Assembly (NCBI GenBank): GCA_001781095.1
Contig: MFKU01000005.1
Span: 3,651-67,650 of the forward strand
Direction: 5' to 3'
Source: Candidatus Kaiserbacteria bacterium RIFCSPHIGHO2_01_FULL_53_31
GTDB taxonomy: Bacteria > Patescibacteriota > Minisyncoccia > Phycocordibacterales > Phycocordibacteraceae
DNA: 64,000 nt
Shown here: positions 29,264 to 30,690 of the stretch, one piece after another
Numbering within the stretch: the first letter of the stretch is position 1
Layout of the letters: every line of letters starts with the position of its first letter
The notes under the pieces: generated by a model
Database searches by the model: none
What the model saw: the letters and a program-made list of their open reading frames with translations, nothing else
Told to the model about the DNA's origin: nothing
Position numbers and translations under genes: made by a program

Positions 29264-29683
29264 TTAGGCGTCGCCGATGTAATGAATCGAGAGACCGAGC
29301 AGATGAGAATTGGTCATGACAAGACGACCTACCGCTTCCTCTTGCGTCTTGCCGATTTCGCACGATTCTTCAGGAGCTCCTAATATGCGAGCGAGATGCA
29401 CAACGCGCTCGGGCTCAGCCTGAACTTCCTCAACAATTATTCGGTGCATGGCACAACCCCTTTCCATTGCGCACTCGACTGCCGGCGGTTGCGAAGGAAC
29501 ATCAGCAGAAATTTCTTCTTCAGTCACTGCCAGTTCGTCACAGTCGCATTTCCGCATGACGCGCCAGCAGACCTCGCCCGAGACACTGTTTTCTGCCCTG
29601 CGAAAATGGACCACACCACGGGCGCAGTAGTAATGGAAATAGTTTGCCCAACTACCGCCCGTTCTTACCAATCTTGCAATCAT
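29264..29683 (-). CDS. Cys-rich hypothetical protein (possible metal-binding)
   Basis: GGAGG SD 8 nt before ATG (MIARLV...); clusters YYCARG, KCDCDE, ECAMERGCAMH. Confidence 0.45.
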   Translation of the reverse strand: MIARLVRTGGSWANYFHYYCARGVVHFRRAENSVSGEVCWRVMRKCDCDELAVTEEEISADVPSQPPAVECAMERGCAMHRIIVEEVQAEPERVVHLARILGAPEESCEIGKTQEEAVGRLVMTNSHLLGLSIHYIGDA

Positions 29684-29785
29684 AGTGCGCCTCCTACGCA
29701 TCAATTCGCTTACTGCCGTTTTGGTCTGAGACAGATCAACGTACCACTTGCAGGATACACTGTATCTTTATATTGTCAACTTTTG

Positions 29786-30109
29786 CTCCGGGAGCAGGAC
29801 TCGAACCTGCAACCAACGCCTTACACTGATCCTAAAGTTTCCTAAAGGCGTGGACTATATCATCACCGTGTCTCGGTGCGAGGCGCTTCCTGGCCACAAC
29901 TTTTCAGCTGTTGGCGAGTACTCCCCGAAGGGATAGTCTCTGAACCTTCCCGCCAGCAATGCTATAGCATAGCTTTGGGCGGGCTTGGCTGCTGATTGTC
30001 CTCGGCGTTACCGTTAGGGTTTCCAGCAATTCACCTCGTTATTCAATCTCGAATTCCTTCGAGATGCTGCCATCGACAGGGCGCTGCTCTACCATTGAGC
30101 TATCCCGGA
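29786..30109 (-). tRNA. tRNA gene (most likely Asn-GUU; Thr-UGU is the alternative) interrupted in the anticodon loop by a ~252-nt group I intron
   Basis: Exon 1 UCCGGGAUAGCUCAAUGGUAGAGCAGCGCC-CUGU; exon 2 UAA-GGCGUUGGUUGCAGGUUCGAGUCCUGCUCCCGGA-G. U1-A72 plus G73 and the loop CUGUUAA match bacterial tRNA-Asn; CCA is not encoded. Confidence 0.75.
29824..30075 (-). ncRNA. group I self-splicing intron (IC3-like, tRNA-anticodon-loop type)
   Basis: The core matches cyanobacterial tRNA-Leu and Azoarcus tRNA-Ile introns: GGAAACC-UAA, CAGCCAAGCC, and the P7 strand CAGAGACUA with its partner AUAGUCC; ends in G; no ORF. Confidence 0.7.
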
Positions 30110-30174
30110 ATATTTTGAACCAAACACGCCCAAAAGGGCGTGAATGCATATTAACTCAAAATTCACGCCTCGCA

Positions 30175-30690
30175 ATGCTACAGTACAAACACATGGGCGT
30201 GATGCTACGACTCTCGAGCTCGGCATTTGAAGATTGTGGAATCATTCCGGCGAAGTATACGTGTGATGGTAGCGCGACAATCTCGCCACCACTCACGATC
30301 TCAGGAGTGCCAGACGGGACGAAGTCATTGGTGCTCGTTATGGATGACCCGGACATTCCACAGGTAGCCAAAGATGCGCGAGGCATCGACTCATTTGACC
30401 ACTGGGTGCTCTACAATATTCCTCCCGAGACAAGAGAATTACCCGAAAGCGACAGCGGGAATGTTGGCGTCGGGGAGCTTGGCCTCAATGGGTCGGGCAG
30501 TGTTGGGTACGCGAGCCCTTGTCCGCCACCTCATCACGAGCCCAAGGAGCATTGCTACATCTTCGCGCTGTATGCGCTACGAGATACGCTCTCGTTTAAA
30601 GAAACACCGAGCAAAGAGCAAGTGCTTCAGGCGATGGAATCACTCCTTATCGCAGGGGTGACACTTATTGGACGATATTCACGGGCGTGA
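30175..30690 (+). CDS. YbhB/YbcL family phosphatidylethanolamine-binding protein (PEBP)
   Basis: AKYTCDG...ISPPL...SLVLVMDDPDIP...DHWVLYNIP...GY..PCPP motifs; start moved to 30175 because the ORF-track start overlaps the tRNA. Confidence 0.75.
   Translation: MLQYKHMGVMLRLSSSAFEDCGIIPAKYTCDGSATISPPLTISGVPDGTKSLVLVMDDPDIPQVAKDARGIDSFDHWVLYNIPPETRELPESDSGNVGVGELGLNGSGSVGYASPCPPPHHEPKEHCYIFALYALRDTLSFKETPSKEQVLQAMESLLIAGVTLIGRYSRA

Follow-up and report, generated by a model that had tools for sequence, protein, structure and literature searches.

A group I intron without an open reading frame in a probable tRNA-Asn(GUU) gene of a Kaiserbacteria-like genome

The interrupted gene and its intron

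The 64,000-nucleotide (nt) stretch of metagenome-assembled DNA analysed here (the window, to which all coordinates refer) carries on its minus strand a transfer RNA (tRNA) gene that is divided by a group I intron. The gene is very probably a functional tRNA-Asn(GUU) gene, in which the intron lies between anticodon positions U35 and U36. The 5′ exon (tRNA positions 1-35; 30076-30109, 34 nt) consists of the acceptor strand UCCGGGA, UA, the D arm (GCUC AAUGGUA GAGC), A, the anticodon-stem strand GCGCC and the loop bases C32 U33 G34 U35 (CUGU). The intron (29824-30075, 252 nt; 3′ end ...CAGUG) is of the subgroup IA type and contains no open reading frame (ORF). The 3′ exon (positions 36-73; 29786-29823, 38 nt) consists of U36 A37 A38, the stem strand GGCGU, the variable loop UGGUU, the T arm GCAGG-UUCGAGU-CCUGC, the acceptor strand UCCCGGA and the discriminator G73. 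CCA is not encoded at the end of this exon and must therefore be added post-transcriptionally. The joined exons fold into a canonical 72-nt tRNA, and the locus is the only asparagine tRNA gene within the window.

The Rfam group I intron model RF00028 matches 29831-30153 on the minus strand with 67.3 bits (gathering score, 50 bits; E = 6.6e-15). This match and the exon sequences confirm the coordinates of the tRNA halves and the group I core that an earlier note on this DNA had placed on the minus strand, and they supply the above-threshold RF00028 score for which that note had called. RF00028 aligns the core from P3 to P9 correctly, yet puts P1 on an upstream hairpin (30121-30153); this placement was rejected, since P1 is in fact formed with the anticodon loop.

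Intron nucleotides are numbered from 30075 (nt 1), so that nt N is window position 30076-N. P1 is formed between the last four nucleotides of the 5′ exon (-4 to -1) and the guide GCAG (intron nt 6-9; 30067-30070) via the pairs C32-G9, U33-A8, G34-C7 and U35•G6, and has a 5-nt loop. P2 (nt 11-18/23-30) has a GGAA loop. P3 pairs nt 38-44 (CGAGGUG, 30032-30038) with nt 191-197 (29879-29885), and is followed by P4 (nt 48-53/81-86), P5 (nt 58-60/74-76, plus 63-65/71-73), P6 (nt 87-88/131-132), P6a (nt 93-98/122-127) and P6b (nt 103-107/111-115). P7, the presumed guanosine-binding helix, pairs nt 136 and 138-142 (29934-29940; G-A-GACUA, with A137 bulged) with nt 219-224 (UAGUCC, 29852-29857). An insert between P7 and P3′ (29893-29933) is predicted by per-sequence folding to form P7.1 (nt 143-146/151-154; UCCC-UUCG-GGGA, with a UUCG loop) and P7.2 (nt 161-169/176-183; GCCAACAGC...GUUGUGGC). 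P8 comprises nt 198-202/208-212, and P9 (nt 228-234/239-245) has a GAAA loop. In P9.0, A225 and C226 (29850-29851) pair with U251 and G250, respectively (29825-29826), which positions the terminal guanosine (omega G), G252 (29824). Every modelled pair from P1 to P9 is canonical in the present copy. The minimum-free-energy fold of the intron is better than those of all 200 shuffles (z = -3.74), and the unconstrained fold recovers P2, P3, P4, P5, P6a, P7.2, P8 and P9.

Homologs were collected from metagenomes by a pattern specific for tRNA-Asn introns, which fixed P7, the terminal G and the UAA that opens the 3′ exon. This yielded at least 120 contigs (L113-L232). Among the matches listed, 105 complete split tRNA-Asn genes were extracted, and 71 distinct ORF-less homologs were aligned using MAFFT and an explicit structure string. 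Across these 71, 88.4% of the cells of modelled pairs are paired, compared with 72.2% in shuffled controls (0/500 reach the observed value) and 33-47% when the partners are slid by 1-3 columns; the corresponding covariation scores are 0.445, 0.149 and 0.06-0.16. The anticodon stem, P3, P4, P6/P6a, P8, P9 and P9.0 are 93-100% paired with compensatory changes: P3 reaches 98.6% with compensatory changes at three positions, P4 99-100%, P6/P6a 97-100%, P8 97% and P9.0 100% (pair types AU/GC/GU and CG/AU/UA/GC). P7 is 100% paired, and changes on both sides occur in 41 pairs. P1 forms in 71/71 homologs (slid controls, 25% and 5%). The length-variable peripheral helices (P2 outer pairs, P5, P5a, P6b, P7.1 and P7.2) are poorly aligned by MAFFT. 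In 54 alignment columns the 71 homologs are invariant, and the present copy conforms in each of these. The terminal G is also found beyond the pattern-collected set, in three introns at syntenic loci (L011-L013, see below) and in published sequences.

Alleles at the syntenic site and integrity of the intron

The gene order murA, orf130, def (peptide deformylase), fmt, PEBP, tRNA-Asn is conserved in metagenome-assembled genomes of Kaiserbacteria, Parcubacteria and Paceibacterota, and this places the window in a Kaiserbacteria-like Patescibacteria chromosome. The window matches contigs of ENA metagenome assemblies, and its host is thus uncultured. The syntenic proteins are 55-88% identical (most genes, 60-80%), with MurA at about 78-81% in most relatives (69% in L008) and Fmt at 54-68%. 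The named genomes that share the 3′ exon all belong to the Patescibacteria/Parcubacteria group (Kaiserbacteria, Paceibacterota, Parcubacteria and one labelled Saccharibacteria).

A scan of GTDB with the 3′ exon, using one genome per species, gave 11 loci, and relatives at similar distances differ at the syntenic site. Seven (L003-L007, L009, L010) have an uninterrupted 72-nt gene that is identical to the joined exons at 72/72 nt. ORF-less introns occupy the site in L012 (267 nt, 75% identical) and L013 (221 nt, 78% identical, the nearest intron sequence found). L011 has a 554-nt intron with an ORF in the P1 loop; this ORF matches the HNH endonuclease family phrog_2255 of PHROGs (E = 4e-29), a family also reported in published tRNA-Asn introns (PMC13011429), and Pfam gave no match for the relatives' intron ORF at E ≤ 0.01. 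Long introns of about 545-591 nt are present in 28/105 homologs among the matches listed, and 25 of these 28 contain an ORF of at least about 60 amino acids (68-132 amino acids in those printed). Five long introns were checked, and in each the additional sequence is in the P1 loop, upstream of the guide GCAGC. The corresponding loop of the present intron has just 5 nt, and the ORF check within the intron was negative, in line with the earlier statement that it encodes no homing endonuclease. Given that some relatives carry an HNH ORF in the P1 loop and others are intron-less at the same site, the element has most likely descended by vertical inheritance from a mobile intron and now has no ORF. 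The intron-less, ORF-less and HNH-bearing alleles, all on identical exons, may mark an ongoing cycle of homing and loss; if so, this syntenic set of alleles could allow the cycle to be studied in nature.

In a further relative, Parcubacteria GW2011_GWA1_56_13 (L008:1704-2100, minus strand; LCRY01000002.1), the resident tRNA-Asn gene is broken at the syntenic site. Only the 11 nt at its 5′ end (TCCGGGATAGC) and its 3′ part (TTAAGGCG...CCCGGAG) are left, separated by about 230 nt that contain a different, complete, intron-less tRNA-Asn gene and stretches resembling intron remnants (GCAGC, GTAGTC). The site looks like the product of decay of an interrupted gene followed by its replacement.

From homology and the intact core, the present intron is expected to be capable of guanosine-dependent self-splicing. 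Several points weigh against this expectation and against the gene model as a whole. Splicing is deduced from conservation and from one spliced homolog that is just 59% identical, and the tRNA-Asn copy number was assessed within the window only. P1 and P7 are invariant and thus give no covariation signal, and the search pattern itself dictated P7, the terminal G and the first three bases of the 3′ exon. The P2 outer pairs, P5, P7.1 and P7.2 score poorly in the MAFFT alignment, and per-sequence folds of the P7-P3′ insert give two hairpins in 44 distinct introns and one in 49. There is a C·A mismatch at the base of P5 and there are two U·U mismatches in P9, although the latter are common to L012 and probably tolerated. 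A conserved P10 with the 3′ exon was not found, UAA making 0-1 of 3 pairs with the bases 5′ of the guide in most homologs among the matches listed. Of the P1 and P10 pairings by which the earlier note had proposed to fix the splice site, P1 is thus present throughout the 71 homologs and P10 is not conserved.

One competing explanation is that the intron is a decayed, non-splicing relic in a tRNA pseudogene, with asparagine codons read by the product of another gene. Retention of every invariant column and of every core helix speaks against such decay, even though a few non-canonical pairs (P5 base, P9 U·U) speak for it. The lack of an endonuclease ORF also favors a relic, as does L008, which demonstrates that this locus can decay and be replaced; yet the exons match the intron-less genes, which look functional, at 100% identity. 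A second tRNA-Asn gene could lie beyond the 64 kb from which copy number is known, but the two Patescibacteria introns used in the published splicing assay reside in the sole copy of their tRNA gene. Taken together, a relic is very unlikely.

Asparagine identity, splice sites and proposed pathway

The sequence by itself permits two pairs of boundaries, in each of which U precedes the 5′ site and G the 3′ site. The asparagine reading (CUGU|...G|UAA) gives a GUU anticodon with the intron at 35/36. In the threonine reading (CU|...G|UGUAA), the anticodon is UGU and the intron is at 33/34, such that the 5′ exon ends at U33 (30078), the intron ends at G250 (29826) and the 3′ exon starts with UGUAA. 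The availability of U and G at both boundaries favors neither reading, and tRNA-Thr(UGU) is exactly what the intron mode of ARAGORN calls. Four lines of evidence nevertheless led to its rejection and make it extremely improbable. First, the junction in the seven intron-less genes reads ...CCCUGU|UAAGGCG..., i.e., ...GCGCCCUGUUAAGGCGU...; the threonine-type junction (...CCCUUGUAAGG...) is absent from all seven intron-less GTDB relatives, which read ...CCCUGUUAAGG..., and homologous introns occupy the identical site in L011, L012 and L013. Second, U33 forms a Watson-Crick pair with A8 in P1 and U35•G6 is the sole U•G wobble; since such a wobble marks the 5′ splice site of group I introns, the 5′ site is placed after U35. 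Third, G250, the terminal G required by the threonine reading, is paired with C226 within P9.0, a pairing that shows covariation and is kept in 71/71 homologs, and G252 is therefore the terminal G. Fourth, the asparagine reading works in all 105 homologous introns among the matches listed, whereas the threonine reading is possible only in the 48/105 that end in GUG.

The frequency of GUG ends (about 46% of aligned introns) is far above chance and is the source of the ambiguity between asparagine and threonine. It arises because AC is common after P7′ and pairs with GU before the terminal G in P9.0.

U1, G73, the U1-A72 pair and the 5′ exon end CUGU are present in 105/105 homologs among the matches listed. 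We take U1-A72 and G73 to point to bacterial tRNA-Asn and away from tRNA-Thr, whose identity relies on G1-C72 and C2-G71. The assignment proposed in the earlier note, tRNA-Asn(GUU) with an intron at 35/36, thus agrees with the intron-less relatives, P1, P9.0 and the homolog set; its observation of U1-A72 and G73 extends to all 105 homologs, and its intron length of about 252 nt and CUGU|UAA exon ends are borne out by the intron-less relatives. The same note had left Thr-UGU open: this is correct as to compatibility with the sequence, but the comparative and structural data no longer leave it a live alternative.

Standard annotation handles this locus poorly. In its default mode, ARAGORN detects no gene there, and neither does the Rfam tRNA model. 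The intron mode gives tRNA-Thr(UGU) with an intron at 33/34, and the pre-joined exon sequence is called tRNA-Asn(GUU). The same miscall is documented in the literature: introns of the class Asn.4Ug are sometimes miscalled Thr.2Ug by the software of the study that defined it (Williams, bioRxiv 2020, 10.1101/2020.01.27.920355), and ARAGORN and tFind often label introns at 35/36 of tRNA-Asn as Thr(UGU) 33/34 (PMC13011429). The published annotation failure is therefore reproduced here. With the gene missed or mislabelled as tRNA-Thr, a genome would seem to have no tRNA-Asn and its completeness would be scored too low.

That chance or an assembly artefact brought the tRNA halves next to a structured RNA unrelated to them, a prior possibility for any contig from a metagenome assembly, has virtually no probability and was rejected on recurrence and covariation: the same architecture occurs in three GTDB genomes and in 105 metagenome contigs among the matches listed, the guide is complementary to the anticodon loop in all aligned homologs, and an identical ClpB occurs on 15 contigs from at least two ENA assemblies (a comparison that covered ClpB).

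For the tRNA-Asn(GUU) gene with its intron at 35/36, the following pathway is proposed. The precursor would be transcribed, probably from a promoter with the -10 box TAATAT, which lies some 40 nt upstream. The guide GCAG would pair with C32-U35 to form P1, in which U35•G6 provides the splice-site wobble, and a free guanosine bound in P7 would attack the bond after U35. P9.0 (A225-U251, C226-G250) would then set G252 in the same site, enabling U35 to attack the bond after G252. Joining of U35 to U36 would create the GUU anticodon in the loop CUGUUAA of a 72-nt product reading ...CCCUGUUAAGGCG..., and end trimming and CCA addition would complete the tRNA.

An anticodon exists only after splicing. 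If, as in the published Patescibacteria cases, the genome has no other tRNA-Asn gene, splicing would be required for translation. On the same condition, self-splicing might act as an RNA-only valve that ties the supply of tRNA-Asn, and hence translation, to the guanosine triphosphate (GTP)/Mg2+ state of the cell. Such a role is unlikely on present evidence; the authors of PMC13011429 speculate along similar regulatory lines for Patescibacteria introns.

The region upstream of the gene contains the putative -10 box TAATAT (30148-30153, minus strand), which aligns with TAGAAT-like boxes in most syntenic relatives and is below the threshold of the promoter scan. On this alignment it is a candidate -10 box of the tRNA promoter. 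A GC-rich hairpin (CACGCCC-UUUU-GGGCGUG; 30125-30142, minus strand) is located 15 nt ahead of tRNA +1, within the presumed 5′ leader. Hairpins of unrelated sequence are present 8-15 nt before tRNA +1 in L005, L006, L009, L011 and L012, and this position-conserved hairpin may be a leader structure of the pre-tRNA. It fits a terminator-like consensus, which occurs no more often than expected by chance (1 found vs 1.0 expected). A second, distal inverted repeat overlaps the proximal one at 30137-30142, and the two hairpins are mutually exclusive because they share these bases. The start of the distal hairpin is upstream of the likely -10 box, and this hairpin is not kept in L011, although L011 otherwise shares the promoter-region sequence; nothing points to a switch. 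Two overlapping, mutually exclusive hairpins are thus present as the earlier note described, with counterparts in relatives for the tRNA-proximal one only.

The divergent gene on the plus strand (30193-30690) encodes a protein of the PEBP/YbhB family (NCBIfam TIGR00481; Pfam PF01161, whose match begins at residue 61 of the long ORF). Translation probably begins at ATG 30193, at a distance of 83 nt from the 5′ end of the tRNA, which gives a protein of about 165 amino acids; relatives align over 160-165 amino acids. This start accords with the earlier placement of the PEBP gene start immediately upstream of the tRNA. The alternative start of the ORF at 30064 was rejected because homology favors ATG 30193. 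The mechanical ORF from that start (30064-30690, plus strand) runs antisense over the tRNA 5′ exon, and a pipeline that misses the tRNA could annotate this over-long PEBP ORF. Directly after the tRNA 3′ end, a sigma-70-like site (TTGACA-16-TATCCT, 10/12 matches) is located at 29752-29779 on the minus strand, and downstream of it is a 146-amino-acid ORF (29264-29704) with no family match.

Subgroup and comparison with known introns

The insert between P7 and P3′ has the order UCCC-loop-GGGA, GUAC, second hairpin, GGAAG. The two-hairpin layout is found in the present intron and in 6/7 displayed relatives, in which the sequences differ (e.g., GAGC...GCUC in L160). A P7.1/P7.2 insertion is the hallmark of subgroup IA, and on the modelled fold the intron is assigned to subgroup IA as a whole. 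T4 td/nrdB-type introns are subgroup IA introns in phage protein-coding genes. The core pattern GGUGAAUU...GGAA.CC...CAGAGACUA...AUAGUCC (as DNA, GGTGAATT..GGAA.CC..CAGAGACTA..ATAGTCC) was found in 99 viral contigs of IMG/VR (L014-L112), and 96/100 viral matches to the pattern have no adjoining tRNA 3′ exon. The same type of IA core seems to be widespread in phage protein genes. Some flanking frames were judged by eye to be protein genes (psbA/D1-like in L090, ribonucleotide-reductase-like in L096), and L014, L016 and L089 have in common an exon that begins with QENDFPKLLGAELYRPHP.

The classical self-splicing tRNA introns of subgroup IC3, i.e., those in cyanobacterial/plastid tRNA-Leu(UAA) at 34/35, Azoarcus tRNA-Ile(CAU) at 36/37, tRNA-Arg(CCU) and tRNA-fMet, resemble the present element in being group I ribozymes that measure about 200-250 nt and interrupt the anticodon loop of a bacterial tRNA, with a P1 that uses loop bases, and in the core motifs GGAAACC, GCCAAG, AGAGACUA and AUAGUC. 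They differ in host tRNA and insertion point and have no P7.1/P7.2. An IC3 affinity was rejected: P7.1/P7.2 is present, and the three IC3 tRNA introns compared are 40-46% identical to the present one and fall outside the family pattern. The likeness to the cyanobacterial tRNA-Leu and Azoarcus introns pointed out in the earlier note accordingly holds for generic group I core motifs, but not for the subgroup.

The four classical intron-bearing bacterial tRNAs have been extended to 21 classes, including Asn.4Ug (Williams, bioRxiv 2020, 10.1101/2020.01.27.920355), and introns at 35/36 of tRNA-Asn(GUU) in Patescibacteria have been assigned to subgroup IA (PMC13011429; Nakagawa et al., mSystems 2026). 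Identity of the present intron to published tRNA-Asn 35/36 introns is 50-59%, compared with 40-46% to IC3 or IA3 tRNA introns (PMC13011429, Table S5). In that table, three tRNA-Asn 35/36 introns, from Nitrospirota, Bipolaricaulota and one member of Patescibacteria, are labelled IA1. The Nitrospirota and Bipolaricaulota introns have the same site, guide and overall layout as the present one and are 50-58% identical to it, but they belong to other phyla, interrupt tRNAs with other anticodon-stem and acceptor sequences, and have a P7-P3′ insert of the form GAGGNUGAGGA... instead of UCCC-loop-GGGA GUAC.

The closest counterparts are the Patescibacteria introns. These have in common with the present one the host tRNA, the CUGU|UAA site, the GCAG guide, P7.1/P7.2, the phylum and the core blocks GGUGAAUU, GGAA.CC, GCAGCCAAG, GGUUCAGAGACUA and GAUAUAGUCC; the HNH endonuclease of the ORF-bearing relatives and the Thr(UGU) 33/34 miscall are also shared. 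HNH endonucleases are encoded in a few of the published Patescibacteria introns, and two introns self-splice precisely in vitro, as determined by sequencing of the product, with splicing blocked by a terminal G-to-C mutation; in both cases the interrupted tRNA gene has no other copy in its genome (PMC13011429). The present intron is 58.8% identical to the spliced intron of GCA_016700035.1 and 56.9% identical to the intron of GCA_016700015.1. The GGAAGGUUCAGAGACUA block is identical to that of the GCA_016700035.1 intron, and the P3/J3-4/P4 and J8/7-P7′ blocks are near-identical. Compared with that intron, the present one differs in its P1 loop, which is very short (5 nt), and in its P6b and P7.2, which are longer, and its host is Kaiserbacteria-like (Parcubacteria group), whereas the published splicing assay used a Saccharimonadia genome. 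Insertion at 35/36, which the earlier note regarded as unusual, is indeed uncommon across bacteria, but it is documented, validated and enriched in Patescibacteria. The locus is thus a further example of a class that has already been published and spliced in vitro, in the phylum in which that class is enriched; it adds a Kaiserbacteria-like host to this documented class and leaves general knowledge of group I introns and tRNA biology unchanged.

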